Part shown: positions 22,976 through 53,748 of the stretch, in pieces | How positions within the stretch are numbered: the stretch's first letter is position 1 | How the letters are laid out: every line of letters starts with the position of its first letter | Translations under genes and position numbers: made by a program | Notes under the pieces: generated by a model | Databases searched by the model: none | The model's input: only the letters and a program-made list of their open reading frames with translations | Told to the model about the DNA's origin: nothing | From: an uncultured Thermoplasmata archaeon | GTDB taxonomy: Archaea; Thermoplasmatota; Thermoplasmata; JAGHBH01 | Length of the DNA: 64,000 nucleotides | Assembly (NCBI GenBank): GCA_964601625.1 | Contig: CAZROC010000002.1 | Span: 80,694-144,693, forward strand | Direction: 5' to 3'

Positions 22976-22992
22976 GCACTTTCACCTTTCTT

Positions 22993-30608: not shown

Positions 30609-30614
30609 TTTTAA

Positions 30615-34342: not shown

Positions 34343-34346
34343 ATAA

Positions 34347-38190: not shown

Positions 38191-38927
38191 CCAACCACCC
38201 CTTCACGTGCATATTTCAAAAATTCAAAGAATCCCTCAACATTTCCACAGTCAAACCTGAAACCGTTTATTATCACCGCATAAATGTCCTCTGTCCTCAT
38301 CAATTTCTTCAATCCATCAGTCAGCTCTATTTCCCCTGTTCTTGGATTTCTACCTCCAATAGATCCGAATATACTGTCTGTGAGAAAATATCTTCCTACA
38401 ATAACCAGCCCATTCAGGATTTTTTCGCTCGGTTTTTCAATAAGATCCTTTACAAGAAAAATGCCATCTTTTATTTCCTCTCCCACAACAACACCATACC
38501 TTCTCATATGATCAGATCTGCTCACACCAATCACTGTGGAACCGAATTCATCATAAACTTCTTTCAGCTTTGACATAGGAGGCTTTTCGGAGACTATTAC
38601 ATCATCTGGTAAAACAACACCAAAAACATCATCTATCCACTCACTAACTAGGGTTATGGCATCACCGAGCCCCCTGGGCTCAGTCTGTATAAAGTATTTG
38701 TATTCAAAATTAGTGTAATTCTTGTTCAGATATTCTTTCAAAATCTCCTTTCTCGGATTTATAACAACACCTAACTTTTTCACGCCCCACACTGTGATTT
38801 CCTCCATAATATAATCTATTACCACCCTGTTGTTTACGATAGGCAACAGCTCTTTCGGGGCATTATCTGAGATTTTTTTCATTCTCTTCCCATCTCCAGC
38901 GGCGGGTATCACCACTTTATCTATCAC
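38187..38927 (-). CDS. Sugar-phosphate nucleotidyltransferase (UTP/dTTP-glucose-1-phosphate type)
   Basis: 246 aa. PAAGDGKRMK N-terminal nucleotide-binding motif. Confidence 0.6.
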   Translation of the reverse strand: MIDKVVIPAAGDGKRMKKISDNAPKELLPIVNNRVVIDYIMEEITVWGVKKLGVVINPRKEILKEYLNKNYTNFEYKYFIQTEPRGLGDAITLVSEWIDDVFGVVLPDDVIVSEKPPMSKLKEVYDEFGSTVIGVSRSDHMRRYGVVVGEEIKDGIFLVKDLIEKPSEKILNGLVIVGRYFLTDSIFGSIGGRNPRTGEIELTDGLKKLMRTEDIYAVIINGFRFDCGNVEGFFEFLKYAREGVVG

Positions 38928-39797
38928 TCCCTCACCCCGTATTTTTCCTTCATTTCATCATTTACCTTCTTCACAGCGCGATGTAATGGAACATTCCTGT
39001 ACTCTTCTGCAAACCTGATGAACGCGGTAAGGTCCTTTGGTAAGCACTTTCCGCCGAAGGCCTTACCGTGCACGGTTCCATACTTGCCTATGCGGGGATC
39101 AAGTGCTACGGCCTGTGCAACTATATTTGAGTCAATACCCAGTTCCTTGCACACCAAAAAAATTTCGTTCCAGTAAGATATCCTTGCCGCCAGAGCGTTG
39201 TTGGAGGCATATTTTATCATCTCCGCGGTTTTGTAATCAGTTCTTATCACCGGTACGGTTATATCGGAATAAAGTTCATCCAGTATTTCATCGCCCCATT
39301 TTTTATTATCTCCCTCTCCCATAACCAATCTATGCTCATTTTCTGGGGTTATGGAGTATCTATCATCATCAATCCATGTGCTATGGATCTCAGTTAGAAA
39401 CTCGGGACTGTAAATGATACCAATTCTGTTTGAATTTCTTAATTTTTTAAAAATAGGTATTACAACTTTTTCTGTTGTACCCGGAAGAATGGTAGATTTC
39501 AATATTACTATATGACCCCTTTTAGATTTTTCCAGAGTCTTTGCTAGGACACATGAAGCGTTTATTATATAATCCAATATCTGATTGCCTTGGTAATCTG
39601 TAGGAGTTGGTACAGCTATAAACAAATATCTACACTCAGAGAGTTCCTCGATTTCCACAGTGGCGTTGAATCCATTGTTTTTCATATCATCCACAACATT
39701 TGGATTTATATCATAGAATTTGACATCAAAACCCTTTTGATGAAGTATTTTCCGGTGGCTTTACCCACAAATCCTGCGCCTATTATTCCAATGCTCA
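38924..39797 (-). pseudogene. UDP-glucose/GDP-mannose 6-dehydrogenase, apparently frameshifted near its 5' end
   Basis: Rossmann start MSIGIIGAGFVGKATGKYF is encoded at 39797..39740 in a different frame from the main ORF 38924..39694 (..FIAVPTPTDY.., catalytic C in GGKCLPKD). A single frameshift near ~39730 would join them. Confidence 0.4.
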
Positions 39798-39829
39798 TAA
39801 GATACCACCTATCACTCTAATTCTATATT

Positions 39830-39965
39830 CGTCGCCCGCAATTTCGGACAACGTTCTGGGCATATCCGAAGTTCCGAGCGGAGCGAGGAATTTGGACGGA
39901 GCGTCAGCGAAGTCGGATATGCACCTGTTAGGCGACCCGAAGGGCAAGGCTGTGAGCGCAAAATT
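39830..39965. repeat. attC-like cassette repeat (copy 12)
   Basis: CGTCGCCCGCAATTTCGGACAACGTTCTGGGCATATCCGAAGTTCCGAGCGGAGCGAGGAATTTGGACGGAGCGTCAGCGAAGTCGGATATGCACCTGTTAGGCGACCC. Internal stem GCATATCCG/CGGATATGC. Confidence 0.7.
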
Positions 39966-41067
39966 ATATTTCAATACCAATGGGATATGCATCTATATGT
40001 CCCTCCTTCCAAAGTTTTGCTGGATCAGGAATCTTTTCTATTTTTGCATTTTTTGTTCCAGCACCATAAACCCTATAAATGTAAAATTTATCTCCTTTTT
40101 CTTTCATTAATCTCCATTGATCTTTTGACACTTGGAACCAAGCTTTTTCGTATTCCTTTGTGGATTTAACCTCGATAAAAATCTCATCTCCATATTCTGT
40201 AATTTTTATGTCATAGTGCTGTCCACTTTCTCCGTTTTTATTTAACCATATTACTTCTACAATTACACTACCATCTTTTTCTAATTTAAAGCCTTGCTCA
40301 GTATCCAATAAAGAGGTGTCGGGATACTTTTTTCTCATTTCATCTTTAATGCACCTAAGAGCATATTCTTCTCCCCATCGTCCAATATCTTCTTTGGCTT
40401 TTTTACTCAAGACTCCGGTAGATTGTGCCCAATCTCCATGTGGTCTGGTTGCGGACTTTTTATCTGAAAGTTTTACCTTCTTCTCTGTTGTTTCTTCTTT
40501 TACTTCTTTAGGAGCATATTCTTCTACATTGATGGGAACATCTTTTGGAGAAAATTCTGGAGTCCATTCTTTTTCTTTTGTTTCATCTAAAATATCTTCA
40601 TCGGTTGAGATAACTGTTTCTCCTGCCAATCCTGACAAATCTTGAGTTGAGGTTTCTGCTGGTATTTGGGTGATTTTTTCAATCTCTGCTTTCTCTTCTG
40701 CGGAGTAAACTTCTTTCGATTCACTCTCTAACAATTGCTTTTCTTTCTCTGCTTTTTCTACTGTTTCTATTTCTTTAATTTTAGAGACCCTTTTTAAAAT
40801 TCTTTCTTCGGATTTGGGCAAGGCCTCTATATTTTTAACACTCATTATATTCTCTGCATTGGGGCTATTACTCATTATATTCATTATAAAATCATCAAGA
40901 CCCTTGATTTCACCAAATACTTTAGAGAACTCCACTGCGAGGTCGTATATGCTACCATCACTCTTCATATATATACAATTCTTGTCCTTATGGAAAATAC
41001 ATGTTTTTTCAGCTTCTTTGTTTATTTCTCTCCATTCATTGACCTTTATTGAATATCTTACTCCCAA
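39964..41067 (-). CDS. PD-(D/E)xK-like (DUF3883-like) C-terminal domain protein
   Basis: 367 aa. C-terminal D...EVK (DIKITEYGDEIFIEVKST) restriction-endonuclease-fold motif. Glu/Lys-rich middle. Confidence 0.4.
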   Translation of the reverse strand: MGVRYSIKVNEWREINKEAEKTCIFHKDKNCIYMKSDGSIYDLAVEFSKVFGEIKGLDDFIMNIMSNSPNAENIMSVKNIEALPKSEERILKRVSKIKEIETVEKAEKEKQLLESESKEVYSAEEKAEIEKITQIPAETSTQDLSGLAGETVISTDEDILDETKEKEWTPEFSPKDVPINVEEYAPKEVKEETTEKKVKLSDKKSATRPHGDWAQSTGVLSKKAKEDIGRWGEEYALRCIKDEMRKKYPDTSLLDTEQGFKLEKDGSVIVEVIWLNKNGESGQHYDIKITEYGDEIFIEVKSTKEYEKAWFQVSKDQWRLMKEKGDKFYIYRVYGAGTKNAKIEKIPDPAKLWKEGHIDAYPIGIEI

Positions 41068-44000
41068 ATTGTCAGTAACATAAACTTTAATTTCTCCAGT
41101 TTTTCAAGCACACTCTTCTCCTTGAGTTTTTCATATTCTTCATTTTCCTCCCAGTAAAGGTATCGTAAAACATACGGTATGATATCTTGAATGAGTTTGG
41201 TACGTTTATCATCTTTTGAGAATGTTGTCTTTTCTACCAAAGGCTCAATCTCCACATTTTCAGATAAATAATGGAGGTCACAAGCTTTAATGAAGAATTT
41301 TATTTTATCTGGATGATAGCCATCCGGTAGCCAGAGAAAACCGATATTTTCCTCATCTTTGAATAATTCATAAAGCTCATTATTATCGTTTATGAAAATA
41401 TCTCCACCGTTAGACCAGAAATCACCTTTATTAATAAGAAAAATCGATTTTTTGATAAAATCATTCCACCAATCTTCCTTAGATATAGGATTTTCAATTT
41501 TATCTGGATCTGGATTCAAGTTACGGTTTAGTTCTTCGTATATTCTTATGATTATCTTCTTATCCTCATCAGATATGTGACTTTTCTCGGATATAGAATA
41601 CAAAACATCCGCATAGTCTTTCGGCGTGGGTTTTTCACTTATACCAATCTTTTCCACAAAGAATCTTCTGAATTTCGAATAATATTTCTCAAGATATATT
41701 CTATTTTTACCAAAAATATTGCTAACATCTTTCCATATAACTTCCCCGCCACTGTAGTAATTTTTATCTGTATCAGGAATAAAAATCAAAGAATTTTGCT
41801 TAAATGCTTCTTTGATTTTAGTGGCATCCTCCCAAAAATGTTCATCTAAGAATCTATATAACTTTTCAAATTTCTCTTTATCTTTACTTTCTTGCTTAAC
41901 AAGGACTTTTAGGTAATTTAAAACGCCCTCTACGCTGGCTTGCGTATTGATGCCCAGAGTTCTAATAAAATCTTCATTTTCAATTTTTACCGCTAAGTAT
42001 GGAACAGTGTCGCCTAAAACTTCGCGGATTTCTGGTTTATCCAAAAATACCTCTGACGGTTTTGCTAAAGTATTTTGAGTTGTTGGGAGCCATGAAGTAC
42101 TTTTAAGTAAATGGACCCATGTAGAATCTGTATGAGCAGAATACCAGGCATAATATTGCCATTTATAAGTTAAATCTTTATATTTTGATATTTCAGACCA
42201 TTGTTTTTGTAGCAACCTTAAGAGGTGGATCATCTTTGATTTTTCACCACGGTTAAGTATTCTATCTAGAAACTCAATAGTATAATCTTCAATTTCTTGA
42301 CTTGTATAATCCCAAGAGGGATTATAACGAGAGCTGTAGTAAGTATTACTTCTTCTTAATTTTTCTTTCTTATCTGCTGATAAATAGCTTCCATCACATC
42401 TAATTACTCGCAATCCTGAATCCACTCCCATTTTCAAGAAAAAGTCTCTCCATTCTCTAATCTTTTTCTCTTTTTCTTCTTTTAGGTCTATAATCTTCTT
42501 TTCTATTTTCTTTACTTCTTTTCTATGTTTCTTTTTCCACTTCTTACTTTTCCCCTGTATTTTGTTTTTTAACTCCAAAATTTCATTATCAATTCGTTTT
42601 AACTCTTGTTCAAGATAACAGAAATGCGCGAAACTTACATCTATACCTTCAAATAACGTCTCTAAATCATTTTCGTTTCCATAACTCCTTGGCAAATATA
42701 CATTCTCTGGATAGTTATACTGTTTTTCTCCTTCATCATCTTTATTAATACGAATACGAAGCGATTTTTTAAGACGTTTTAATGGATCTTCTTTAGTTTC
42801 CCAAGATGCTTTATTGGCATTTAACCTTCTATCGCTTTCTCTTTCGTATTTGTCTGTATTATCTTTGATATACATAACATATCCGATAAGAGTCCTTGAA
42901 TCTTTTTGTTTCCAATCTTCACTTTCATAAACGGGCAAAATATGATCTTCAATGATTTCGTAAGGGTGTGCTTGTTTAAGTCCTAATCTCTGGAGGAATT
43001 CTGAAATTATTTTATCTCTCTCTTCTTTCTTCCGCTTTGAAATAGTATCTATAATATCCCTTTTAATTATTCTGAGCTCATCTTCAAAGCCATATACTGC
43101 TTTTCTCTCCAGCGGGAAGAATACAGCACCTTTATTTATAGATGTCAGTTCTCCATTTTCCAATTTTATAATCTCTAAACTCCTAAGTCGTTCTAAGTGC
43201 TCATCAGATAGCTTTTTCTTGCTAAGATAGTTAAATAGCTTTGCAAACCATTCTTCATTCTTGTTTTCGATCCATTCCTTGTTCTCCAGACACTTAATTA
43301 GGTCATCAATTGAAAAATCATTAACTCCCAGTTTTTGAAGAACTTGCCTTTTAGCCTTTATCTTATCCGATAGATATTCTTTTCCAAAAAATTTCTGGAG
43401 ATCTTCGTTGGTTACTATTTCTTTTATTTCATCATCACCAATTAAAACCTCTGAAGGTCTCTTCCACTTATTTGTTTTTGTCAAAATACATGCTTCCTCC
43501 TTAAGTCTCTCATATATTTGTTCTACTACTGGTAAAAAGAAATCGTCTTTTATTTCTTCTTTGAGAGGAAGATAATTGTAAAAGTTGTATTTTAAATTTT
43601 CATCATTTTTGAATTCTCTAACAGCATCTAGAAATACTCCAATAATGGAATCCCTCAGCCACATGTTCCATCTATTATCATCTTTCTTTATATCCTCTCG
43701 GTCCCCTGTTAAAAGAAAATCTGCTTGGATGATAAACTTAAACCCATATTTATTAATTGGAAGAAAAGCGAAAACAAATTGCTCTTCCGATGTTTTCGAA
43801 TTGCCGCTATTTTCAAGAGGAAATGCTAAAATTATTTCAGTAGTATCAACATCAACCTCTTTCATCATTTGATTTTTGAGATAAACTTTCAACTCAGTGG
43901 GTATTGTCATTTGTTTCTTAACAACTCTCCATCTTTGTTCATTACTGTTATGTAATACCCAAATTTCATTTCTCTTCTTTTCTTTTTTAAAGTACATACT

Positions 44001-44660
44001 TTCATTAGTCACTTTATTTTCAACTTTTATTATTTTAATATTCTTAAGAAATAGTAGCAAAGGAGGGGACATTTGATTTACCTGACCTAAAACTTCTTTT
44101 ACCTTCTTTTCCTCTTCAGCGAAAGGCAATATAATATTTGTGTATTCTCGCTTAATAAATTCTGGAGGACTATCAACCCAAAGAGGTCTAATCAAAGTAA
44201 GAGGCTCCTCTTTTTCATAATGAAACTTAAAACTAAATCCATTTGAATAAATATATGGATCATTAGTGATAGAAAAGACAGATTTAAATCCAACCCCGAA
44301 CTCACCGATAAAACCAACTTTTCTCTTAGTAGAACCAAAAAATTGGCATAGTTTTTCAACATTTTCCTTTCTAAATCCCATTTCATTATTTAGTATCCAC
44401 AAACAATAAGGATAACCTTTTTCTCCGTAATTGATTATATAAATCTCCAAAGAAGGATCTGAAACATCGTAATTATTATCATCAGCGTTTTGTATTAGTT
44501 CTATAATAAATCTAGGTCTGGTATTAAGGCGATCTAAAATTCTTTTTACACCTTTATAATCCACTGGAGTATATCCACCTCTATTTTTCTTTTCTATCTC
44601 CTCAGAGACCCGTTTTTGAATATTTTCAATAATTTCTTTTGGATTTGACTTATGCTTCAT
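41058..44660 (-). CDS. Very large protein with N-terminal GHKL (sacsin/Hsp90-like HATPase_c) domain
   Basis: 1200 aa. IIELIQNADDN motif. Overlaps the downstream PD-(D/E)xK gene by 10 nt. Confidence 0.5.
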   Translation of the reverse strand: MKHKSNPKEIIENIQKRVSEEIEKKNRGGYTPVDYKGVKRILDRLNTRPRFIIELIQNADDNNYDVSDPSLEIYIINYGEKGYPYCLWILNNEMGFRKENVEKLCQFFGSTKRKVGFIGEFGVGFKSVFSITNDPYIYSNGFSFKFHYEKEEPLTLIRPLWVDSPPEFIKREYTNIILPFAEEEKKVKEVLGQVNQMSPPLLLFLKNIKIIKVENKVTNESMYFKKEKKRNEIWVLHNSNEQRWRVVKKQMTIPTELKVYLKNQMMKEVDVDTTEIILAFPLENSGNSKTSEEQFVFAFLPINKYGFKFIIQADFLLTGDREDIKKDDNRWNMWLRDSIIGVFLDAVREFKNDENLKYNFYNYLPLKEEIKDDFFLPVVEQIYERLKEEACILTKTNKWKRPSEVLIGDDEIKEIVTNEDLQKFFGKEYLSDKIKAKRQVLQKLGVNDFSIDDLIKCLENKEWIENKNEEWFAKLFNYLSKKKLSDEHLERLRSLEIIKLENGELTSINKGAVFFPLERKAVYGFEDELRIIKRDIIDTISKRKKEERDKIISEFLQRLGLKQAHPYEIIEDHILPVYESEDWKQKDSRTLIGYVMYIKDNTDKYERESDRRLNANKASWETKEDPLKRLKKSLRIRINKDDEGEKQYNYPENVYLPRSYGNENDLETLFEGIDVSFAHFCYLEQELKRIDNEILELKNKIQGKSKKWKKKHRKEVKKIEKKIIDLKEEKEKKIREWRDFFLKMGVDSGLRVIRCDGSYLSADKKEKLRRSNTYYSSRYNPSWDYTSQEIEDYTIEFLDRILNRGEKSKMIHLLRLLQKQWSEISKYKDLTYKWQYYAWYSAHTDSTWVHLLKSTSWLPTTQNTLAKPSEVFLDKPEIREVLGDTVPYLAVKIENEDFIRTLGINTQASVEGVLNYLKVLVKQESKDKEKFEKLYRFLDEHFWEDATKIKEAFKQNSLIFIPDTDKNYYSGGEVIWKDVSNIFGKNRIYLEKYYSKFRRFFVEKIGISEKPTPKDYADVLYSISEKSHISDEDKKIIIRIYEELNRNLNPDPDKIENPISKEDWWNDFIKKSIFLINKGDFWSNGGDIFINDNNELYELFKDEENIGFLWLPDGYHPDKIKFFIKACDLHYLSENVEIEPLVEKTTFSKDDKRTKLIQDIIPYVLRYLYWEENEEYEKLKEKSVLEKLEKLKFMLLTIWE

Positions 44661-44687: not shown

Positions 44688-44865
44688 CGCTCACAGCCTT
44701 GCGTTGCCGAAGGCAATGTCGCCTAACGTTTTGCGGGTATGCGAAGTTGCCCGATAGGGCAATTTGGGTGAGCAACGAAGGTGCGAACCGCATACCCGCC
44801 TGTTATATTCCCCGAGCGTAGCGAGGGCGAGGAGCGTTAGCGACGAGAGTTGCGGGCGAAAGGTA
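44688..44865. repeat. attC-like cassette repeat (copy 13)
   Basis: GCGTTGCCGAAGGCAATGTCGCCTAACGTTTTGCGGGTATGCGAAGTTGCCCGATAGGGCAATTTGGGTGAGC...CCGCATACCCGCCTGTTATATTCC...GAGAGTTGCGGGCGAAAGG. Internal stem GGGTATGCG/CGCATACCC. Confidence 0.7.
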
Positions 44866-44883
44866 CGTTTAAAGATGAGTATA

Positions 44884-45816
44884 CTATTTGGTTTCATAGT
44901 TTAAACCCCACAAATGTTTTTTAAATTTATTTATATTATCGATATTAAGACTTTTAGCTATAAAACGATCAAAGCCCAAACTGAAACCTCCATGGTTGGT
45001 AGGATTTTCTTCTAAGACTTTTAAATAAAACATATAGTCTCTTGGATTGACGCCAAACTCTTCCATTTTTTCAATAATAATTTTTATATTAGTTTCCCTT
45101 ATGCCACCTGAAGATATCTCCCAGCCTTTAAATATCAGGTCAAAAGCATGCTTATATTTATTATCATCATCGTATGATTTTATATAGAATTTCTTTACAG
45201 ATTTAGGATATTTTTTTATAAAAAACATGTCTCCCACAGTATTTTTCAACAAATTTGCTAGTTTTTTTTCACGATCCGGACCAATGTCTTCACCCCATTT
45301 AATATTTATACCATTATCATTTAGAAGAGATATAGCATCGTCGTATAGTATTACAGGTATTGGATATTTTACATCTCCTATTTTTAAATGATATTTTTTA
45401 AATATGCGGTCGGACACACATTTTATCATGTTGCCCAAAAAAGTCATCAGTTGATCTTCGGTCGAAATACCAGCCATTTCTACATCTATTGTCCAGAATT
45501 CATCATTATGTCTTTCAGTTTTTTCTACATTATCTCTCCATGTAGGGCATATTTCATAAACTCTCTGCAAACCATAGCATACAGCCATTTGTTTAAACAT
45601 TTGAGGAGATTGCGCTAATAACCCACGTTTCTGCCCATTAGTCGAAAACACTATAAATATCTCCTTTTTCGTCCCCCGTATAGGGTCTGTAGCGACAGGC
45701 ACAAGTTTTGGTGTAAGTATTTCTACAAAATCTTTACTTCTGAGATAAGACCGAAAGAAAAATAAAACATCATCCATATATTTTAATATCTCCTTTTTAT
45801 TATTGATTCTCATCAT
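44884..45816 (-). CDS. Class II aaRS catalytic-core-only paralog (AsnA-like / AspRS-like, no anticodon-binding domain)
   Basis: 310 aa. FVEILTPKL, QSPQMFKQ...RVYEICPTWRDNVEKTERHNDEFWTIDVEM (motif 2), HGGFSLGFDRF (motif 3). Confidence 0.6.
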   Translation of the reverse strand: MMRINNKKEILKYMDDVLFFFRSYLRSKDFVEILTPKLVPVATDPIRGTKKEIFIVFSTNGQKRGLLAQSPQMFKQMAVCYGLQRVYEICPTWRDNVEKTERHNDEFWTIDVEMAGISTEDQLMTFLGNMIKCVSDRIFKKYHLKIGDVKYPIPVILYDDAISLLNDNGINIKWGEDIGPDREKKLANLLKNTVGDMFFIKKYPKSVKKFYIKSYDDDNKYKHAFDLIFKGWEISSGGIRETNIKIIIEKMEEFGVNPRDYMFYLKVLEENPTNHGGFSLGFDRFIAKSLNIDNINKFKKHLWGLNYETK

Positions 45817-45819
45817 ATA

Positions 45820-47658
45820 CTATTTACCTCCCAATTGGTGACCTTCATTATTATCTATACATAGATGCAGCTCTTTAAGCTGATCTTTTGAAACAGTAGA
45901 AGGAGTATCGTCCATCAGGCACCTTCCATCCTTATTTTTAGGAAATGCTATTACTTCTCTTATGGAGTCAACTCCTGCCATAATAGCAACAAGTCTATCT
46001 AAACCTAACGCAATTCCACCATGAACTGGTGCACCGTAATCCAGCAATTCTAACAATGATCCAAACTTAGTCATATATTCTTGGGGTGATAGCCCAATCA
46101 ATTTGAAGATTTTTTCTTGGAGTTTTCTATCATGGATTCTTATTGACCCTCCACCAACTTCCCAACCGTTAAGCACAAGATCATAAGCTTTAGATCTAAT
46201 CTCAGAAGGATCCTTCAAATCGTTTAATGAATCAATCTTCATTAATATCTCTATATGTTCATCTTTAGGAGATGTGAAAGGGTGATGAACACAAACCCAG
46301 CGTTCTTCTGTGTTGGAATACTCAAACATCGGAAAATCAACTACCCACAAAAACTGATACTCTTGTTTATCCAGTAACCCATAGTCTCTAGCGATCTTTA
46401 ATCTAATTTCTCCGAGTGTTTCTGAGACCTCTTTACCTCTTCCTGCCATAAGTATTAATAAATCTCCATCACTTAATTGGGTCCTCTCTATTATACGATT
46501 TATTTCCAATGTAGATAGATGTTTAGATATTTGTGATTTTAATTTATTGTCAATGAATTTAAACACAAAAACCCCCTTGTCTCCTTTACTTCTAACAAAA
46601 TTTGAGATTTTATCAATATACTTACGACTAATTTTATCTGCTAATTTTGGTATTTTTATACATTTAATAACACCATTATTATTAAGAACTTCTCTAAATA
46701 TAGTAACAGATGTATTTTTGAAAATGTCAGATAAATCTACAATTTTAGATTTAAAGCGTAAATCTGGTTTATCTGTGCCGAATTTATTAATAACATCATC
46801 ATATGAGTATATAGGGAAAGGTGTTTTTATTTTAATATCAAGTGTTTCTCTAAAAATATACTTCAAAAGGTCTTCGATAGTTCTAAAAATATCTATGGGC
46901 TCTACCCATGACATTTCAATATCTATTTGTGTGAATTCTGGCTGTCTGTCTGCTCTTAAGTCCTCATCTCGTAGGCATTTTGCAATTTGATAATACTTGT
47001 CAAATCCTGCTATCATCAATTTTTGTTTATATTGTTGGGGAGATTGAGGCAAGGCATAAAATTTTCCAGTGTGAAGACGGGATGGAACCAAAAAGTCCCT
47101 AGCGCCTTCAGGAGTTGGTTTTGCGAGAATTGGCGTTTCAATATACACGAATCCTTTTTCAAATAGATAGTGCATGGTATAATTAATCACCTTACTTCTC
47201 AAAATGATTCTATTTTGCATGTCCTTTCTCCTTAAATAAATGGGTCTCCACCGTAGTTTAGATTCATCATATATCTTCGCATTATCCTCAACTGGAATGG
47301 GTAAAGGTTTTGCTTTATTGTATATAAAGCACTCTTTCACTATGACCTCAATATCTCCCGTTTTTATATGTGGGTTTTTTAAATTTTCCGGTCGTTCTTT
47401 GACAACACCTTTTATTCCGATTGTACTATGAATATTTAAATGTCTTAAAACTTCAAATTGGTCTTCTTTTATCATGCTTCTATTGAAAACAAGCTGCACT
47501 TCCCCGTATCTATCAAATAGGTTCACAAATATCATACCACCATGCCATCGAAGACTTTTAATCCACCCAGATAGGACAACTTCTTTTCCCACATCTTTCA
47601 ATGTCAATTCTCCACACGTATGAGTCCTATATTTTTTTACCTTTTTCATGATTATCAC
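45820..47658 (-). CDS. aspS: Aspartyl-tRNA synthetase, bacterial-type length (with insertion domain)
   Basis: 612 aa. N-terminal OB fold, FVYIETPILAKPTPEGARDFLVPSR, QSPQQYKQ, FRDEDLRADRQPEFTQIDIEMSW, GAPVHGGIALGLDRLV. Confidence 0.8.
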   Translation of the reverse strand: MIIMKKVKKYRTHTCGELTLKDVGKEVVLSGWIKSLRWHGGMIFVNLFDRYGEVQLVFNRSMIKEDQFEVLRHLNIHSTIGIKGVVKERPENLKNPHIKTGDIEVIVKECFIYNKAKPLPIPVEDNAKIYDESKLRWRPIYLRRKDMQNRIILRSKVINYTMHYLFEKGFVYIETPILAKPTPEGARDFLVPSRLHTGKFYALPQSPQQYKQKLMIAGFDKYYQIAKCLRDEDLRADRQPEFTQIDIEMSWVEPIDIFRTIEDLLKYIFRETLDIKIKTPFPIYSYDDVINKFGTDKPDLRFKSKIVDLSDIFKNTSVTIFREVLNNNGVIKCIKIPKLADKISRKYIDKISNFVRSKGDKGVFVFKFIDNKLKSQISKHLSTLEINRIIERTQLSDGDLLILMAGRGKEVSETLGEIRLKIARDYGLLDKQEYQFLWVVDFPMFEYSNTEERWVCVHHPFTSPKDEHIEILMKIDSLNDLKDPSEIRSKAYDLVLNGWEVGGGSIRIHDRKLQEKIFKLIGLSPQEYMTKFGSLLELLDYGAPVHGGIALGLDRLVAIMAGVDSIREVIAFPKNKDGRCLMDDTPSTVSKDQLKELHLCIDNNEGHQLGGK

Positions 47659-47667
47659 CTCAATTTT

Positions 47668-49689
47668 TCATGGTACAAATAATTTACTCGTTCTGGGAAA
47701 AGCTACGACTCTTGATACGTCACCAAAGCCTAACAATTTAGTTATAAATCTTTCAATGCCCAAAGCAAAACCTCCATGTTGTGGCACATTTTTATCTTTA
47801 TAAATATCCAAATACAACTTATACCTCTTAGGAGGTAGACCCGATTTTATTAAATTTTTTTCTAATGTTTCGTAATCGCATTCTCTCAAACTACCAGATG
47901 CCACTATCCAGTCACTCATTATAAAATAGAAACGAGTAGATGTTTTTTCATCTATGTTTTTGACATAGAATCTTCTAAAATCGACAGGTAAATTTGTTAC
48001 AAAATACAGTGATGTATCAAACTCGTTTATTATGTGTTTTGTTATGATAGGAAGATATTTCCTAAATGACCTATCATCGTTTACCTGTACACCATTTTTG
48101 CCAAAATATTCTACCAAGTCAGAAAATGTTATTTTCATGATCTTATCAGAATAAAGTGCTTTATATAATCCAAAATCTCTTAAATATACATATTCATTCT
48201 CCCAAAGCTTTTCTCTGCATGAGATTATCATGTTTTTTAATAAGTTAATAATGTTATCAGTATTATTTGTAGTTAGTTCGCAGTCCACGGCCCACGCTTC
48301 ACACAACGAGTCCTTGCGGTGATGAGTTAATTTTCTCCAAAATGGTGCAATCTCATATATTTTCTCAAATCCATTTACAATCAAAAGAGATTTGTAATAT
48401 TGTGCTGATGCTCGTAGGAAACTCTTCTTACCATAGTAATCAACTTCAAACTGTGCTACTTTTTTTGTTGTGGTTATATCTACCGGGATCACAGTTATTA
48501 ATGGCGTGAATATCTCAATAAAGCCCTCCGAAGTAAGAAATTGTTTCATATAATTAATAGCAGAAGATTTAATTATAAATATTGGTTTTTTAACGATGAA
48601 TATACTTCTATCCGATAAATGTTCCTTTATAGTGTAATCTATTAACCTTTTTTGTAAATACAATTTAAAGTTCTCACACTCCCTCCCGATAATAGAATTA
48701 ACCTTTATAAGTTCCTTTTTACGCATTTCGATCGTTTTATCTGCAAATCTTCTGATATCATCAATATGGTAAATCCGTATCTTTTTGATTTTCTCTATTT
48801 CCAAATCGATCACTGGTGGAACACTTATGTCAAAAATTTTTACATCTTTTTTAAGCAGATTTGTGTCGTTGATGGTGATAAGATGTTTGGGAGAGTCAGT
48901 AGTAGCGATTATTATATCATACTCTTTGAGATTTTGCTTTAGGTATGAGTAGCTATATACAACATATCTTAGATCTTTTATTTTTTTGGCTTTCTCTGGA
49001 TTTTTAGTGTATACAAACACTTTCTTAAAACCATTCTCGTGGAGTGCCTTACATATCAATTGTCCTGAACTTCCTGCTCCTAATACAGCAATGTTGCTAT
49101 CAATATGAACATTCTCCTTAAGAAGGTGTGCTACTATGTTTCGTTCTATACTTGTGTATCCGCGATGGAAGCTGGTTTTATTATTTATTTCATCATCAAC
49201 AATTTTTGCATATTCAAAAAGGGTTTGTAAAAAAACACCTGTACAACCACTTTCCCTTGCGATTTGAAATGCCTTTAAAACTTGACCTCTTACTTGTGAA
49301 TCACCTAATATGACACTCTTTACACCGCATATGGTCTCAAACAAGTGTCTAACACCATGCATCTGGCTGTATTTCTCAAGTTTTGTTTTATAAATATCCT
49401 CATGGAACTTTTTTGAAAACTTCTTCCATACTTTGTATATAACTTCATCCACCATCCTCGGATCAGTAGTTACCACATAGAACTCTATAGAATTGCACTT
49501 TTGAATTATTACACATTCTTTAATTATTGAAATATTTTTTAACTCACAAAGAGCAGGTCTTACATCTTTTATTTTCTTATTACTATCCCACAAAGACATA
49601 TCCCCAATAATCTGTTGAAAATTTCTTTCTGCACCACCAACTCGTCTAACTTCTAAATGATTATTTTTTAAAAAATCCTCAACGAGCAT
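47668..49689 (-). CDS. Fusion protein: N-terminal glutamyl-tRNA reductase (HemA)-like domains + C-terminal class II aaRS catalytic core
   Basis: 673 aa. CVIIQKCNSIEFYVV (compare VLSTCNRTEIY), HLFETICGVKSVILGDSQVRGQV (compare [23 protein letters not shown]), NAD(P) site VLGAGSSGQLICKAL. C-term FWRKLTHHRKDSLCEAWAVDCE (motif 2) and QHGGFALGIERF...VVAFPR (motif 3). Confidence 0.55.
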   Translation of the reverse strand: MLVEDFLKNNHLEVRRVGGAERNFQQIIGDMSLWDSNKKIKDVRPALCELKNISIIKECVIIQKCNSIEFYVVTTDPRMVDEVIYKVWKKFSKKFHEDIYKTKLEKYSQMHGVRHLFETICGVKSVILGDSQVRGQVLKAFQIARESGCTGVFLQTLFEYAKIVDDEINNKTSFHRGYTSIERNIVAHLLKENVHIDSNIAVLGAGSSGQLICKALHENGFKKVFVYTKNPEKAKKIKDLRYVVYSYSYLKQNLKEYDIIIATTDSPKHLITINDTNLLKKDVKIFDISVPPVIDLEIEKIKKIRIYHIDDIRRFADKTIEMRKKELIKVNSIIGRECENFKLYLQKRLIDYTIKEHLSDRSIFIVKKPIFIIKSSAINYMKQFLTSEGFIEIFTPLITVIPVDITTTKKVAQFEVDYYGKKSFLRASAQYYKSLLIVNGFEKIYEIAPFWRKLTHHRKDSLCEAWAVDCELTTNNTDNIINLLKNMIISCREKLWENEYVYLRDFGLYKALYSDKIMKITFSDLVEYFGKNGVQVNDDRSFRKYLPIITKHIINEFDTSLYFVTNLPVDFRRFYVKNIDEKTSTRFYFIMSDWIVASGSLRECDYETLEKNLIKSGLPPKRYKLYLDIYKDKNVPQHGGFALGIERFITKLLGFGDVSRVVAFPRTSKLFVP

Positions 49690-49690
49690 C

Positions 49691-50860
49691 TTAGATCACC
49701 TCGCTCCATTTTTTATAAATATTCTTTATTTGTGACTTTGAAATTGGCCATGGATTGTTAATAAGTAGTCTTTCTCTTTTTAAACAAGATGCAACCATTC
49801 TATCCAAATTTAATCTATTTCTTAATTTGATAAGATAATTCCTATATCCTGTAAAGTTCATACATCTATTAATTACTTCAATACATCTTATTAGAATATC
49901 TTCATCTATGTGGTCTACAAAATCCCCATAATATTCTTCCAACACAAATTTTAAAAATAGGGATACCGCTATACTGTGTGGTATTTCGTACAGGTCTTGC
50001 AATGGATAGGACAAAGCATGAATTAAACCAACGCCAGCATGTTTGTCAGCTATACCAGCATAAAAAGTTCCTATCATCAATTTCTCTCTATTGTTAATTT
50101 TATTAGGGTTAGTAATAGATTGTAAGAGATTTGATGAAATAAGGTTTATAGAATAAGATGAAAAAGTCTTAGTCATGTATGTTTTCTTTTTAGAAATATG
50201 TGCCTCAATTGCATGGGATAACGCATCAAGTCCTGTGGATGCAATAATCGATTGAGGCAACGTAAGGGTCCAAAGAGGATCCAAAAGCACAATATCGGGA
50301 AGCAAAAGAGGATCTATTAATGCAACTTTTTCTCCGCTGTTATTTTTTACTATAGATATGTCTGTTGCTTCACTACCACTTCCAGTTGTTGGTAATACAA
50401 ATAACGTAGTCTTTGAAATTTCTGTTATAACCTTTTTAGTATCTATAATATTTGATAAAGTTTGAAGCGGGCTTACGGTTCTGTTGATTACGGATACTAT
50501 CTTTGCCAAGTCAATTGTACTTCCACCACCAATTGCAATGATAGCATCCGCTTTGTTTTTATGACAGACATTGTGCATCATTTTTCCTATAGTACCTATA
50601 GTTGGTTCACCACTTGGTTTTTTGTATATATCATATGAAATAGTATTTTCATCTAAAATCTTCAGTAGTTCTTTCATTATATCCATATTTTCTATAGATA
50701 ACGAAATAATAATTAATATTTTATCACAATTTTTATTCTTCAATTCATTAATAATTGCTTTGTAACACCCTTCTCCATAATAGGTCTTTGGAATTTCTAT
50801 ACTGTTTATTTCTTTTTGTTTAGTTCTTCCAGCACATCCATTAGATGGCATAGTATTCAC
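49691..50860 (-). CDS. Iron-containing alcohol dehydrogenase / 3-dehydroquinate synthase-like oxidoreductase
   Basis: 389 aa. GGGSTIDLAK glycine-rich NAD motif. His-rich metal-site region. Confidence 0.55.
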   Translation of the reverse strand: MNTMPSNGCAGRTKQKEINSIEIPKTYYGEGCYKAIINELKNKNCDKILIIISLSIENMDIMKELLKILDENTISYDIYKKPSGEPTIGTIGKMMHNVCHKNKADAIIAIGGGSTIDLAKIVSVINRTVSPLQTLSNIIDTKKVITEISKTTLFVLPTTGSGSEATDISIVKNNSGEKVALIDPLLLPDIVLLDPLWTLTLPQSIIASTGLDALSHAIEAHISKKKTYMTKTFSSYSINLISSNLLQSITNPNKINNREKLMIGTFYAGIADKHAGVGLIHALSYPLQDLYEIPHSIAVSLFLKFVLEEYYGDFVDHIDEDILIRCIEVINRCMNFTGYRNYLIKLRNRLNLDRMVASCLKRERLLINNPWPISKSQIKNIYKKWSEVI

Positions 50861-50887
50861 CCCAAATTGTTATTGTTTTAGTATGCC

Positions 50888-51045
50888 TTTCGCCCGCAAT
50901 TGAATATAACGTCCAGCGGGTATCTGAAGTCCTGAGCGACAGCGAAGGATTTGGGCGAAGTGCCGGAGGCACGTAGCCAGATACCCGCTTGTTGTGCGAA
51001 CCCGATAGGGCTGATGCCGAAGGCGGAAGGTCGTGAGCAAAGGGC
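50888..51045. repeat. attC-like cassette repeat (copy 14)
   Basis: TTCGCCCGCAATTGAATATAACGTCCAGCGGGTATCTGAAG...GCCAGATACCCGCTTGTTGTGCGAACCC...GTCGTGAGCAAAGGG. Confidence 0.7.
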
Positions 51046-51058: not shown

Positions 51059-52348
51059 TCATTTCATACCACCTTTTTTCTTCATTTTTTCTTTCCATGT
51101 TATAAATTCAAATAATGCGTCAATTTCAAGATAAATGGGCAGTTTTGGACATTGCTGTCCAACAGTTCTTAAATATGTTCGCTTTACAATTTCCATATCT
51201 TTAACGAAGGCATCGTATTTCGCAGGTGAATAGGGAGATGCTAAATCCTTAAAAATTTCTTTTAATCCTTTTTTAGCCTTCCCATTTAAATGCGGGTACT
51301 TATCACCATGTGCAAGCATTAATAATTGTGTTGCTAATCCCCATGGATGCTTATCCTTTCCCCCAATAAGTATTTTATTACAAAATCTTTCAATTCTATC
51401 AGTTACAGGTTTTTTCCCATATAATAGCTCTTTCAGCTCTTTATTTAATTTTTTCTCTCCATTTTTATTTATGATCTCTTTCTCCACAAAAATATCTGGG
51501 TTCTTTCGGCTATACCCTCCTTCTGTTCTTATTATATTATCCAAATCAAATAAAGGATATTTTCCTCCAAATAGTTCTATAAGTTCTCTTTTACTAAGCG
51601 TCCTACCTCTTTTTATTTTGTCAATTAATTTTTTCTTACTATTATAAAATCGTAATCTTGCATCACATTCGTTTGGTACTGCCCAAGGTCCGCGTTTTGT
51701 TTTCCACCATGTTGACAAATCACTTTTATGTTCATTCAAGCATTGTCCTACTAAAATGATCTTTTTGCTGCCAATGTCTGACATTTTAATCTTGTATATT
51801 TCCTTTTTCACGTTCTCTTTAGTTTTTTTAATGTGTCTATAATCCTTTTTGTATTGTTTTACTAAATCATCATTCAACCTCACTCCATTGCTGAAAATTT
51901 TATCAAAATTTACAAGAACATCTCTTATTTCTGGATCAGAGGCTTTTCCACTAATTAAAACATTATATTCAAAATTATCTGAAAAACCTCCTTTACTTAC
52001 ATTTGACGATCCTATTATTACGGTAACATCATCACTCTTCTTAAATATGTACGTTTTTATATGGAATGTCTTTCCACTTACGGGAAAATTATATAATCTA
52101 CACTCCCATGAGGCTCCTGCCTTTATTTCATTGAGAATGTCCTCTAATACTGCCTGTTCAGTATTATAAAAATCACACCCGATAGCAAATTGCACATTCT
52201 TTTTTAGTAATACACCTTTAAGTTTGTCATACATTTGTTTCTTGACAAAAAATACTGCTATTTTGACATCGTTTGCTTTGTTTATTTCCCATCTTATTAT
52301 ATGTTCCAAATCCTCTTCAGGAACAAGTATTGTCCTAATATTAGCCAT
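51059..52348 (-). CDS. PLD-family (HKD) nuclease-like protein with C-terminal unknown domain
   Basis: 429 aa. Single HKD motif FHIKTYIFKKSDDVTVIIGSSNVSKGG. Confidence 0.55.
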   Translation of the reverse strand: MANIRTILVPEEDLEHIIRWEINKANDVKIAVFFVKKQMYDKLKGVLLKKNVQFAIGCDFYNTEQAVLEDILNEIKAGASWECRLYNFPVSGKTFHIKTYIFKKSDDVTVIIGSSNVSKGGFSDNFEYNVLISGKASDPEIRDVLVNFDKIFSNGVRLNDDLVKQYKKDYRHIKKTKENVKKEIYKIKMSDIGSKKIILVGQCLNEHKSDLSTWWKTKRGPWAVPNECDARLRFYNSKKKLIDKIKRGRTLSKRELIELFGGKYPLFDLDNIIRTEGGYSRKNPDIFVEKEIINKNGEKKLNKELKELLYGKKPVTDRIERFCNKILIGGKDKHPWGLATQLLMLAHGDKYPHLNGKAKKGLKEIFKDLASPYSPAKYDAFVKDMEIVKRTYLRTVGQQCPKLPIYLEIDALFEFITWKEKMKKKGGMK

Positions 52349-52506
52349 GTTTAAACACCTCCTGCATCAATATTCTTTTCCCCTTCTTAAGCCCTTTGCT
52401 CACGATTTCGCACAACTCCCCCATCTCCGCATTATTACATATATTTTGCTTTGCGGGTGGTGTATGTGTATTGCGGATATTTTTCTTTCTGGTGGTGTTT
52501 TGTGTG
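52349..52506. other. attI-like junction: half cassette-repeat adjacent to the integrase stop codon
   Basis: GCCCTTTGCTCACGATTTCGCACAACTCCCCC carries the left (AAC-side) box TTCGCACAAC, the exact reverse complement of the GTTGTGCGAA box of repeat copy 14. No right half follows. Confidence 0.45.
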
Positions 52507-53631
52507 TTATTTCGCATATTCATACCTCTCTATGTTGTGTTGATTTTGGGTCTCGGGATTGTTGTTATCACCGGCTGTCTCTCCTGTTTCGTTTGCCGTG
52601 GCAGTTATCGTATCCAGCGGGCTTTTTATTCTGGTGAGTGTGCGGGTTGTTACGTGGGTGTAGATTTCGGTGGTTTTGGTGCTTTTGTGGCCGAGGAGTT
52701 TTTGTATGTATCTTATGTCTATTCCGTTTTCAAGGAGGTGGGTGGCGAAGCTGTGTCTGAGGGAGTGGACTGTTGCTGGTTTTTGTATGCCTGCTTTTTT
52801 GAGGGCTGTTTTGAATATGGCCTGTGCTGTTCTGGCTGAGATGTGTCTGGTTGGGTTGGCTCCGGGGAAGAGCCATTTTTGGGGGTTGTAAGTTTGCTGG
52901 TATTCTTTCAGTGTTTTGATAGCGGTTTCGGCGAGTATGGTGTATCTGTCTTTTCTTCCTTTTCCGCCTTTTATGTGTATGACTTTCTGGTCTGTGTCTA
53001 TGTCTTCGTTTTTCAGGGATACCGCTTCGCTGACCCTGAGTCCCGAGGAGTATATCAGCATAAGCAGGGTTTTGTGTTTGAGGTTTGTTGTGGCTGACAG
53101 GAGCTTTTGTATTTCGGCTGGTGAGAGTACGACGGGTAGTTTTCGCTCTTTTCTGGGCCGTTTGATGTCGTATGTAAATTTTCTGTTGAGCATCTGGCCG
53201 TAGTAGAATTTGATGGCGCTTATGGCGGTGTTTATTGTTGTGGCCGATACTCCTTTTTCTGCGAGGTCTGAGAGGTAGTTTTTTATGTCTGTGGCGTTTA
53301 TCTGGTTGGGGTTTTTTGATGTGTGTTTGAGGAGTTGTTTGTTGTAGCGCATGTAGGCGGCGGCTGTTCTCGGGCTATATTTTCTGGCTGCGAGTTCTTC
53401 TTTCAATGGGTGGAGCCAGATGTCTGGGTTTGCTTTGATTTTTTCTCCTTTGAAGAGTTTGAGGAACGTGGATATTTGCTGGCTTGGGACTGTCCAGTGT
53501 TTTTTGTGTGGATGCCATCTGTGGCCGGGTATGGTCTTTATTTTTTCTATGTACTCCGGGTTATATGGAAACCTGACGATAATCTCCTCCCCTCCGCCTG
53601 TCCCTGTCTTTACGGTTATCTCCCCTCTCAT
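52507..53631 (-). CDS. Tyrosine recombinase / integrase (candidate integron-type integrase)
   Basis: Start chosen at ATG 53631 (MRGEITVKTG...). C-terminal catalytic domain with R (GLRVSE), H-x-x-R (HSLRHSFATH) and Y (TTEIYTHV). Track ORF extends upstream to 54741 as low-complexity read-through. Confidence 0.7.
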   Translation of the reverse strand: MRGEITVKTGTGGGEEIIVRFPYNPEYIEKIKTIPGHRWHPHKKHWTVPSQQISTFLKLFKGEKIKANPDIWLHPLKEELAARKYSPRTAAAYMRYNKQLLKHTSKNPNQINATDIKNYLSDLAEKGVSATTINTAISAIKFYYGQMLNRKFTYDIKRPRKERKLPVVLSPAEIQKLLSATTNLKHKTLLMLIYSSGLRVSEAVSLKNEDIDTDQKVIHIKGGKGRKDRYTILAETAIKTLKEYQQTYNPQKWLFPGANPTRHISARTAQAIFKTALKKAGIQKPATVHSLRHSFATHLLENGIDIRYIQKLLGHKSTKTTEIYTHVTTRTLTRIKSPLDTITATANETGETAGDNNNPETQNQHNIERYEYAK

Positions 53632-53748
53632 TGCGGTGTGAACTGTTTTTTGGTTTATAATTCTTTCTTTATGGCGTGTTTGGTGGTGGTTAGAGATGTG
53701 GGAATAAGCATAAGTACCACGTCTTTTTTCCCTGCTCTGTGATGTGCT

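Follow-up and report, generated by a model that had tools for sequence, protein, structure and literature searches.

Introduction

Glutamyl-tRNA reductase (GluTR; HemA) is, to our knowledge, the only enzyme known to reduce an aminoacyl-tRNA, and it is known solely from tetrapyrrole synthesis; likewise, the only chemistry we know of for its fold is the thiol-mediated, NADPH-dependent reduction of an aminoacyl-tRNA ester. Here we describe a four-gene cassette, with open reading frames (ORFs) at positions 44,884 to 50,860, in a 64,000-nucleotide stretch of contig CAZROC010000002.1 from an uncultured Thermoplasmata archaeon (assembly GCA_964601625.1; the whole stretch is referred to as the window). 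One of the four genes encodes a protein of 673 amino acids (aa) in which a GluTR-like reductase is fused to a class II aminoacyl-tRNA synthetase (aaRS) core of the aspartyl-tRNA synthetase (AspRS) type. Its companions are a complete AspRS, a stand-alone AspRS-type core of 310 aa and an iron-containing alcohol dehydrogenase (Fe-ADH). We rate the fusion family as GluTR-type chemistry in a new architecture, with what would be a new substrate and a new operon.

Class II aaRS paralogues that lack an anticodon-binding domain, such as AsnA, the archaeal AS-AR, EpmA/PoxA, HisZ and the amino acid:carrier-protein ligases, provide a second point of comparison. The resemblance lies in a core-only organization in which motifs 1-3 and the amino-acid pocket are kept in most members, and cores of this kind probably act on something other than the full tRNA anticodon complex. 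The fused core and the 310-aa core described here differ from these paralogues in that they score closest to archaeal AspRS and fall under the cut-offs for AsnA and EpmA, and we know of no anticodon-domain-less class II paralogue that is fused to a reductase.

The carboxylic-acid reductases (CARs) and the adenylation-thiolation-reduction modules of nonribosomal peptide synthetases (NRPSs) resemble the cassette in reaction logic only: a carboxylate is activated with ATP, held as a thioester and released with NAD(P)H as an aldehyde, which is often reduced further to an alcohol. Their folds are unrelated (an ANL adenylation domain, a phosphopantetheinyl carrier and a reductase domain of the short-chain dehydrogenase/reductase, or SDR, type), and none of these Pfam domains occurs in the four cassette proteins. 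Here, a Cys in the active site of a GluTR fold would instead supply the thiol and a class II aaRS core would do the activating, with no carrier.

Complete aaRSs are also found beside small-molecule enzymes in biosynthetic gene clusters, where they include self-resistance copies and dedicated suppliers of aminoacyl-tRNA such as VlmL, along with the aaRS-like tailoring enzymes AcmF and SbzA. We know of no biosynthetic-cluster aaRS that is coupled to a GluTR-type reductase. Reductases, GluTR-like enzymes and aspartyl enzymes all go unmentioned in a review, from January 2026, of natural-product enzymes that depend on aminoacyl-tRNA (PMC12945691), and our own search of the searchable literature for a GluTR-aaRS fusion or an aspartyl-tRNA reductase found no description of either.

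Results

A GluTR-like reductase joined to an AspRS-type core

The 673-aa fusion is encoded at positions 47668..49689 on the minus strand, as are all domains given below, and its composition was established from Pfam and NCBIfam matches, alignments to structures in the PDB, an AlphaFold2 (AF2) model and Foldseek. Residues 42-172 (49174..49566) form a GluTR-like catalytic domain (GlutR_N, PF05201, 6.4e-23). Within it lies the motif Q-K-C-N-S-I-E, whose Cys65 (codon 49495-49497) aligns to the Cys of 'STCNRMEIY' in Arabidopsis GluTR. The fusion thus shares with GluTR the nucleophile in its C-N-x-x-E setting, as well as the signature G-x-x-S-x-x-x-G-[DE]-x-Q-[VI]-x-x-Q. As in GluTR, an NADPH-binding Rossmann domain of the Shikimate_DH type follows the catalytic domain (residues 197-314, 48748..49101; PF01488, 9.6e-22), with the motif G204-x-G206-x-x-G and an alignment to residues 80-323 of 1gpj. 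The secondary structure of the AF2 model then shows a long connecting helix (residues 309-359, 48613..48765), the equivalent of the 'spinal' helix of GluTR, which continues directly into a class II catalytic core of the AspRS type (residues 369-667, 47689..48585; PF00152, tRNA-synt_2, 1.3e-43; alignments to 1wyd and 1b8a).

Searches with phmmer against the PDB divide the protein at the same place, matching residues 46-346 to the GluTR structures 1GPJ and 4N7R and residues 368-673 to the archaeal AspRS structures 1WYD and 1B8A. The AF2 model, built on the family alignment, has a pLDDT of 87 and is confident through the junction. When this model was used as a Foldseek query, it matched the AspRS cores 3nel and 1b8a with a root-mean-square deviation of ~2 Å over 312 columns and GluTR 1gpj with a TM-score (TMt) of 0.70. 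Sequence and fold both mark the N-terminal half as specifically GluTR-like, rather than as a generic Rossmann dehydrogenase without the GluTR Cys or domain order.

A first-pass annotation of the window had described the catalytic, NADPH and dimerization domains of GluTR joined to a complete class II core, and had proposed the Cys of QKCNSIEF as the nucleophile. The proposed Cys is indeed Cys65, and the catalytic and NADPH domains are present. The dimerization domain is not: Pfam finds no GlutR_dimer match in the fusion, the alignment to 1gpj stops at about residue 346, and only the long helix is left. Nor is the class II core complete in the window's copy. It retains the motif 1 Pro, the motif 2 Arg, the motif 3 Arg and the Asp-binding S/Q/K/D/R residues, but R-K-L takes the place of R-x-E in motif 2 and Ile that of the Mg-ligand Glu, so that two ATP/Mg residues are lost. 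Since the motif 1 proline is retained, the fused core is probably dimeric, in which case it would stand in for the missing GluTR dimerization domain.

By membership criteria, the fusion is neither HemA/GluTR nor AspRS proper. It is excluded from the former because it lacks the dimerization domain, has lost the Arg of the Glu pocket, has no tetrapyrrole context and scores below the relevant cut-offs, with 169.3 bits (1.3e-49) against a cut-off of 209.55 for the hemA equivalog TIGR01035 and 129 against 429 for NF000744. No hemL, hemB or other tetrapyrrole or aminomutase gene was found in the window's cassette or in ~30 related loci, and the fusion is linked to AspRS, not to GluRS. It is excluded from AspRS because a Pfam scan finds no OB anticodon-binding domain (PF01336) in it and because its score against the archaeal-type AspRS model NF003483, 195.9 bits, is below the cut-off of 353.

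A conserved fusion family

The first-pass annotation had suggested a search for the same fusion elsewhere. An exhaustive HMMER scan of 1.84 billion representatives returned ~30 proteins of 617-695 aa that align to the fusion end to end in a single stretch at 22-35% identity. A metagenome scan with family-specific peptide patterns, for which a closer full-length set (A3) was the query, added ~25 loci with a full-length fusion; ~55 of its 80 loci proved to be ordinary archaeal-type AspRS or AsnRS genes that match the pattern, and these were excluded from the evidence. A protein identical to the fusion is also present on a separately assembled Logan contig (L001). Other searches were less informative. 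In a word-indexed homologue search, the fusion came back as a singleton, even with the family alignment as the query, which was misleading given the family that HMMER found, and a scan of genome contigs with the single fusion protein recovered only ordinary AspRS genes (L002, L003). P0038 and similar proteins of ~900 aa were considered as fusions and rejected, being eukaryotic AspRSs.

We then took a census of residues in 41 distinct full-length homologues. K64, C65, N66, S125, D130, Q132, Q136, G204 and G206 are invariant in all 41, as is the K-C-N around the nucleophile. The GluTR motif 'T-C-N-R' has become 'K-C-N-[A/C/S/G]' in every protein (K-C-N-S in the window), the Thr position being Lys without exception, and the GluTR motif 'GE.QI' reads 'GD.QV' throughout the family. 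On these patterns, the nucleophile and the NADPH machinery are under strict selection, and the substrate pocket differs systematically from that of GluTR. We take the Arg of 'TCNR' to be the residue that contacts the Glu side chain in GluTR. Given that this Arg is always replaced by A, C, S or G and that the neighbouring Thr is always Lys, the census points to a reductase substrate other than Glu.

The fused cores suggest what that substrate may be. We checked nine residues of the AspRS type that serve catalysis or Asp binding (an R and two E residues in motif 2, the equivalents of K198, D233, E235, E482 and R489, and the R of motif 3), and all nine are retained in 33 of the 41 cores. Those that contact the side chain and amino group of Asp (S, Q and the K198, D233 and R489 equivalents) are likewise retained, and a family signature 'LRQSNQLYKQ' occupies the place of 'AQSPQLYKQ' in AspRS. 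Because the Asp-binding K, D and R are kept, aspartate is most likely the substrate.

The remaining eight cores, the window's among them, are deviant in that catalytic residues have been lost while the reductase half is intact. In a neighbour-joining tree, the window's fusion groups with two other deviants, P0013 and P0021. Each deviant core whose genomic context is known (in the window, L085, L086 and L089) has a complete aaRS or a stand-alone core nearby. An intact reductase beside a decayed core, with another aaRS or core at hand, suggests that the acyl donor can come from outside the fused core.

A core that carries the family signature also occurs on its own. At L025 (9,983-10,972), a 329-aa stand-alone class II core with 'LRQSNQ' and all catalytic residues is flanked by a histidine kinase and an AAA_18 protein, and a tRNA synthetase of class I lies farther out (PF00133, with a leucyl-type editing domain match). 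No reductase gene was found among the part of its neighbours that was scanned. This protein may be a free-living version of the fused core.

Companion genes of the cassette

The four ORFs all lie on the minus strand with operon-like spacing. The stop codon of the Fe-ADH gene overlaps the start of the fusion, and the subsequent gaps are ~10 nt and 3 nt. The ORF coordinates, this spacing and the flanking attC-like sites described below bear out the description, made in the first-pass annotation, of four tightly packed genes in a single cassette.

The first gene encodes a group III iron-containing alcohol dehydrogenase (49691..50851, minus strand), with 386 aa from an ATG at 50851 or 389 aa from a GTG at 50860; a Shine-Dalgarno-like GGGGTG lies upstream of the start, and the 386-aa form is recorded in a public collection. 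The protein shows the GGGS nucleotide motif and the D/H/H/H metal ligands, and it matches PF00465 (1.8e-32) and PF25137. Its best NCBIfam match, lactaldehyde reductase, scores 191 bits against a cut-off of 523, and ErcA is likewise far below its cut-off. It had been described as resembling both Fe-ADH and 3-dehydroquinate synthase, and only the former holds: the aroB model TIGR01357 gives E = 0.002 and 17 bits against a cut-off of 305, compared with 1e-32 to 1e-56 for the Fe-ADH models.

The third gene (45820..47658, minus strand) encodes a complete bacterial-type AspRS with an OB domain, a catalytic core and a GAD insertion, with 612 aa from a GTG or 609 aa from an ATG at 47649. It scores 765.7 bits against NF001750 (cut-off 443) and 682 bits against TIGR00459. 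Pfam identifies OB (PF01336, 1.3e-13), GAD and tRNA-synt_2 domains, and the catalytic motifs are all canonical. Among the three synthetase-type proteins of the cassette, it alone passes an AspRS equivalog cut-off and has an OB domain. Given the archaeal markers in the flanks of the window (see below), this is a bacterial-type AspRS in an archaeal genome, as had been proposed. A different bacterial-type AspRS, which lacks GAD and carries a C-terminal YbaK/ProX-type editing domain (PF04073), was seen in P0004, P0005 and L095 (8,001-9,860); the annotation of one such protein gives Patescibacteria as its source, and another is found among ordinary housekeeping genes.

The last gene (44884..45816, minus strand) encodes the 310-aa stand-alone core of archaeal AspRS type (PF00152, 4.9e-53), in which a Pfam scan finds no OB domain (PF01336). 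It retains QSPQ..K, the D, the Mg Glu and the motif 3 Arg; its motif 2 reads R-D-N (Glu to Asn), and a short tail ending ..WG.. replaces the C-terminal FPR motif. It scores 236 bits against the AspRS model NF003483, below the cut-off of 353. Its best match in the PDB is the AspRS of P. kodakarensis (4.5e-56), with 3nel and 1b8a at E of about 1e-56. An earlier view of this protein as an AsnA-like amidating enzyme was rejected: the AsnA model NF005052 gives 112.9 bits against a cut-off of 368, the AspRS score is higher, and AS-AR is absent among the PDB matches with E<1e-10. At L085, a 298-aa stand-alone core is 41% identical to it over the full length and has the same R-x-N motif 2 and the same truncated '..WG' tail. 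Since the orthologue shares these peculiarities, the 310-aa gene is a conserved component and not a pseudogene.

Gene neighbourhoods of related loci

To place the cassette in a wider context, ORFs from 24 metagenome loci and from the window were clustered and the clusters annotated, and seven further family members were looked up. Several of these loci are short contigs, so absences in them mean little. In most loci with enough flanking sequence, a complete AspRS adjoins the fusion, and it comes in three non-orthologous architectures. A GAD-less bacterial AspRS of 459-473 aa (584 bits against a cut-off of 443) is found at L005-L008, L012-L014, L016, L018-L020, L022-L024, L026, L027 and L071; an archaeal-type AspRS of 431-484 aa, above its cut-off, is found at L004, L085 and L086; and the bacterial AspRS with GAD is that of the window. 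At L093, the fusion lies beside a 454-aa OB-plus-core class II synthetase to which no type was assigned. The idea that the companion AspRS is always an extra copy was not supported, as the GAD-less AspRS is also the usual form in the genome of a relative that lacks the fusion (L095).

A second reductase is the other recurrent companion. It is a YdfG-like SDR of ~248 aa in 14 metagenome loci, often between aspS and the fusion, and an SDR also adjoins the fusion at L084. In six loci (the window, L004, L012, L024, L085 and L093), the second reductase is an Fe-ADH, and no SDR was called in the stretch examined at loci with an adjacent Fe-ADH. This alternation looks like non-orthologous displacement of an aldehyde-reducing step. 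Hydrolases also recur near the module, namely Amidohydro_2 (8 loci), a TatD/Amidohydro-like protein (L004), metallo-beta-lactamase (MBL)-fold proteins (L017, L021) and HIT proteins (L004, L006, L019).

Four loci are of particular use for comparison. L085 (P0021) contains an AspRS, the fusion, the 298-aa stand-alone core and an Fe-ADH, which are the four components of the window's cassette, in another order and with an archaeal-type AspRS. At L086 (P0014), the Mg Glu of the fused core is replaced by Lys, and both a stand-alone core and an archaeal-type AspRS are present. At L089 (1-22,001; ENA ERZ25039590 contig_68578), the fusion member P0051, whose core is strongly decayed, is found within a cluster of polyketide synthase (PKS) and NRPS genes, so secondary metabolism makes use of the family too. 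This cluster also encodes a LigA/LigB dioxygenase, an Aminotran_4 protein, a methyltransferase, an SDR, a GFO_IDH_MocA protein, an ATP-grasp enzyme, a GNAT protein, a phosphopantetheinyl transferase and a class I LysRS. At L004 (2,878-12,932 of the 778-kb contig Ga0315274_10000002), three genes for class IIb synthetases with an OB domain stand immediately upstream of the Fe-ADH, the fusion and the TatD/Amidohydro-like gene; two are archaeal-type AspRSs above cut-off and one is AsnRS-like and below it, an unusual pile-up of AspRS paralogues that has a HIT gene as well. Two AspRS genes near the module occur at L006 and L020 too, and the pairs at these three loci could equally be the known pairing of a discriminating with a non-discriminating AspRS.

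Judging from neighbouring genes (ScpA, LD-carboxypeptidase and GAD-less AspRSs like those annotated in Patescibacteria), the related loci appear to be bacterial. The attC motif of the window was not found in any of them, and they therefore lie outside this type of integron.

The cassette within an integron-like array

The flanks of the window have a GC content of ~52% and enclose an island, from ~10.6 to 52.4 kb, of ~33% GC. Because these flanks encode a fen_arch flap endonuclease (507 bits against a cut-off of 352), a sulfide-dependent Thi4-type ADP-thiazole synthase, Taw2/Trm5b-type wyosine enzymes and a GGGP-type prenyltransferase, the host of the cassette is an archaeon.

Long imperfect palindromes punctuate the low-GC island with the layout R''..AAC / GCGGGTATCTG ... 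CAGATACCCGC / GTT... A conserved 22-nt attC core motif has 12 matches compared with 0 expected by chance, and the repeat finder adds further copies; imperfect inverted repeats with a GTT core, as in the attC sites of integron cassettes, thus recur along the array. The four genes form one cassette because two such sites enclose them. The site at the promoter-proximal end (50870..51030, minus strand), recognized from repeat families D1, D4, D6, D8 and D9, from its sequence and from its hairpin, reads R'' GCACAAC, L'' AAGCGGGTATCTGG, L' CAGATACCCGCTGG and R' GTTATAT on the minus strand. The site that closes the cassette (44707..44875, minus strand), recognized from repeats, hairpin folding and motif matches, reads R'' ATATAAC, L'' AGGCGGGTATGCGG, L' CGCATACCCGC and R' GTTAGGC on the same strand. 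Both are predicted by folding to form hairpins, the former as single-strand DNA with z = -4.75 on the plus strand. The cassette runs from ~50,910 down to ~44,725, a length of ~6.2 kb, and its outer bounds including the two sites are 44,707-51,030.

The array begins beside a gene for a tyrosine recombinase like XerA and the integron integrases (52507-53640, minus strand), which is co-oriented with the cassettes. The protein scores 239 bits against NF040815 (cut-off 220) and, in two stretches, 230 against TIGR02249 (cut-off 265). Inspection of repeats and sequence places an attI-like half-site at 52383-52416. The arrangement resembles the archaeal integrons described by Ghaly et al. (2022; PMC9668308) in that a tyrosine recombinase is followed by an array of attC-bounded cassettes on an archaeal chromosome, and the cassette is far lower in GC than the host flanks. 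It differs in the unusually large size and four-gene content of the cassette and in the recombinase, which is below the TIGR02249 integron-integrase cut-off and has the same orientation as the cassettes.

Other cassettes and features of the island are described here for completeness. A cassette of ~9.3 kb between attC sites at ~30,466 and ~39,836 (window 30,500-39,830) holds about nine genes, including a UDP-glucose/GDP-mannose dehydrogenase fragment, a nucleotidyl transferase, an epimerase/dehydratase, a GT4 glycosyltransferase, a radical SAM/SPASM protein, an O-methyltransferase with WG repeats and a Polbeta-nucleotidyltransferase/Tyr-phosphatase fusion, and it looks like an operon for the modification of glycans or small molecules. 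The two cassettes that adjoin the four-gene cassette look defence-like: that at 39,964-44,660 encodes a sacsin-type HATPase protein of 1200 aa and a NOV_C protein of 367 aa, and the first cassette past the attI-like half-site (51,059-52,348) encodes a 429-aa nuclease of the phospholipase D (PLD)/NgoFVII type. More defence-like cassettes occupy 14,704-28,040, with a 1235-aa RecD/UvrD-like helicase, an N6/N4 DNA methylase, a HerA/DUF87 ATPase and DUF6884 and YaaA-like proteins. On the far side of the island, a tRNA-Thr(CGT) gene (6382-6454) lies at the GC transition, and just before it are two 49-nt direct repeats that are 92% identical (6086-6134 and 6247-6295). Together, the features at 6,086-6,454 may mark an old integration boundary.

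Discussion

Beyond the domain architecture, residue conservation and gene linkage observed above, we infer a substrate (Asp), an acyl donor (a tRNA ester or an adenylate), products, and the alpha carboxyl as the group that is reduced. We propose that the cassette is a self-contained module in which activated aspartate would be reduced in two steps, first to an amino aldehyde and then to an amino alcohol. In the version that we prefer, and to which we give somewhat less than an even chance, the activated form is Asp-tRNA. The core of this idea was already present in the first-pass annotation, and comparative genomics now backs it with a conserved family and with linkage to AspRS and a second reductase.

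In this scheme, the complete AspRS would charge tRNA-Asp. Cys65 of the GluTR-like half, acting as in GluTR and with the needed residues invariant across the family, would attack the aminoacyl ester to form an enzyme thioester, and NADPH bound by the Rossmann domain would reduce the thioester to the alpha-amino aldehyde, 3-amino-4-oxobutanoate. The Fe-ADH, whose role appears to be filled by either an SDR or an Fe-ADH across loci, would then convert the reactive aldehyde to the amino alcohol, 3-amino-4-hydroxybutanoate. The fused core, in the place of the GluTR dimerization domain, would most likely dimerize and dock the substrate, Asp-tRNA or Asp-AMP, by its aspartyl end. Where the fused core is intact, as in most of the family, it probably makes Asp-AMP itself, and in the window's subfamily, in which the fused core appears to have decayed, a separate 310-aa core would have been added alongside. 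We favour the tRNA-dependent version because a tRNA ester is the only known substrate of the fold, because an AspRS of whatever architecture is retained near the fusion, and because the reductase survives decay of the fused core.

Several observations weigh against this proposal. All of the ATP, Mg and Asp residues that we checked are kept in 33 of 41 fused cores. A purely tRNA-fed reductase leaves such intact cores unexplained, and synthesis of Asp-AMP for direct transfer to Cys65 fits them better. The fusion has no anticodon-binding domain. The His of the GluTR motif 'HLF', which we take to be the proposed catalytic residue of that enzyme, is Tyr or Phe in about half of the family. No AspRS was found within the available flank at L010, L011, L015, L017 and L021, and no dedicated tRNA gene was found beside the module in the window or the related loci. 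Finally, a supplier AspRS on a mobile cassette looks redundant, every host already having an AspRS, and a role in immunity looks to be the better explanation for it.

An alternative is a route in which no tRNA is involved, which we regard as possible, though distinctly less than even in likelihood. The class II core would make aspartyl-AMP and pass the aspartyl group directly to Cys65, after which NADPH would yield the aldehyde and the alcohol dehydrogenase the alcohol, according to the logic of carboxylic-acid reductases and NRPS terminal reductases minus the carrier domain. The activating core would be the fused one in most members and the 310-aa core in this cassette, and AspRS would not be a pathway enzyme. 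Such a route would account for the persistence of all nine AspRS-type residues in 33 of the 41 proteins at only 22-35% identity, and for a fused core that lacks an OB domain, like the aaRS paralogues that act on non-tRNA acceptors. The model of the fusion, in which a single rigid helix appears to join an adenylation module to a thiol-reductase module, is consistent with it, as is the presence of an adjoining stand-alone core where the fused core has decayed (the window, L085 and L086). Acyl transfer from a class II core to a thiol also has a counterpart in the SerRS-like amino acid:carrier-protein ligases, which aminoacylate the thiol of phosphopantetheine. What direct transfer leaves unexplained is why a complete, anticodon-binding AspRS in any of three architectures travels with the fusion. 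It also sits poorly with L089, whose decayed fused core has no second class II core within 10 kb of it and is accompanied by a class I LysRS, and with a tRNA ester being the only characterized substrate of the GluTR fold.

For translation in an archaeon, an AspRS carried on a mobile cassette is redundant, and its type varies among loci while the linkage is kept. These two points lead to a third proposal, compatible with either route to the aldehyde, that we consider rather unlikely; the first-pass annotation had named a resistance or decoy set as its own alternative. Here the cassette would encode a toxin and its immunity: an Asp-derived antimetabolite would act against AspRS, the cassette's AspRS would be a resistant copy, and the hydrolases would detoxify. 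An example would be an aspartyl-adenylate mimic such as aspartol-AMP, which a class II core would make from ATP and the amino alcohol. Mimicry of aspartyl-adenylate with AspRS as the target is known from processed microcin C. The recurrence of HIT, Amidohydro_2, MBL or TatD-like hydrolases beside the module, the presence of a family member in the L089 PKS/NRPS cluster alongside a GNAT protein and a class I LysRS, and the defence-like cassettes that neighbour this one in the array all favour such a role, and aaRS-like enzymes that build aaRS inhibitors are represented by AcmF and SbzA (PMC12945691). On the other hand, the active sites of the companion AspRSs look fully canonical, and the GAD-less form is also the ordinary housekeeping AspRS in related genomes without the fusion (L095), so that many of the neighbouring genes may be the cell's own AspRS. 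The cassette contains no transporter or export gene, and we know of no precedent for the adenylylation of an alcohol by an aaRS core.

That both the fused core and the 310-aa core of the window deviate from canonical aaRS motifs might suggest that the genes have no joint function, and that a spare AspRS, decaying aaRS fragments and a generic dehydrogenase were captured by chance. We consider this very improbable, and conserved linkage largely refutes it: the same set of components recurs in rearranged order in independent, diverged loci (L085, L093, L012, L024, L004), an orthologue 41% identical to the 310-aa core shares its peculiarities, the reductase residues do not vary in any of the 41 proteins, and the genes are translationally coupled. 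The last explanation, that a missed stop, frameshift or assembly error joined a hemA-like gene to an aaRS fragment, can be dismissed given the 41 full-length homologues that align in a single stretch, the identical protein on a separately assembled contig and a model that is confident across the junction.

Taken at their fullest, these proposals could be joined into one, which we regard as doubtful as a whole. The fusion would be the first aminoacyl-tRNA (or aminoacyl-adenylate) reductase outside tetrapyrrole synthesis, and it would provide a third, aaRS-based route to amino aldehydes beside the NRPS reductase domains and the CARs. Its product, for instance an aspartyl-adenylate mimic, would target AspRS, the companion AspRS would confer immunity, and this weapon-plus-shield unit would be moved by integrons between bacteria and archaea.

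If the reduction of activated aspartate proves correct, the family would represent a second widespread lineage of GluTR-type reductases, rewired for aspartate and welded to an aaRS core, which extends tRNA and aaRS chemistry to amino aldehydes and alcohols. For biocatalysis, a set of two or three genes would also provide a compact alternative to reductases of the NRPS or CAR kind, and the PKS/NRPS cluster at L089 could be a natural-product entry point to the family's chemistry. The conserved pairing with AspRS raises the testable question of whether this protein supplies substrate, acts as a partner in a complex or confers immunity. As an archaeal integron-type cassette whose closest relatives reside in bacterial-looking loci, the locus described here is a concrete case of a whole pathway that would have crossed between domains of life as one cassette.

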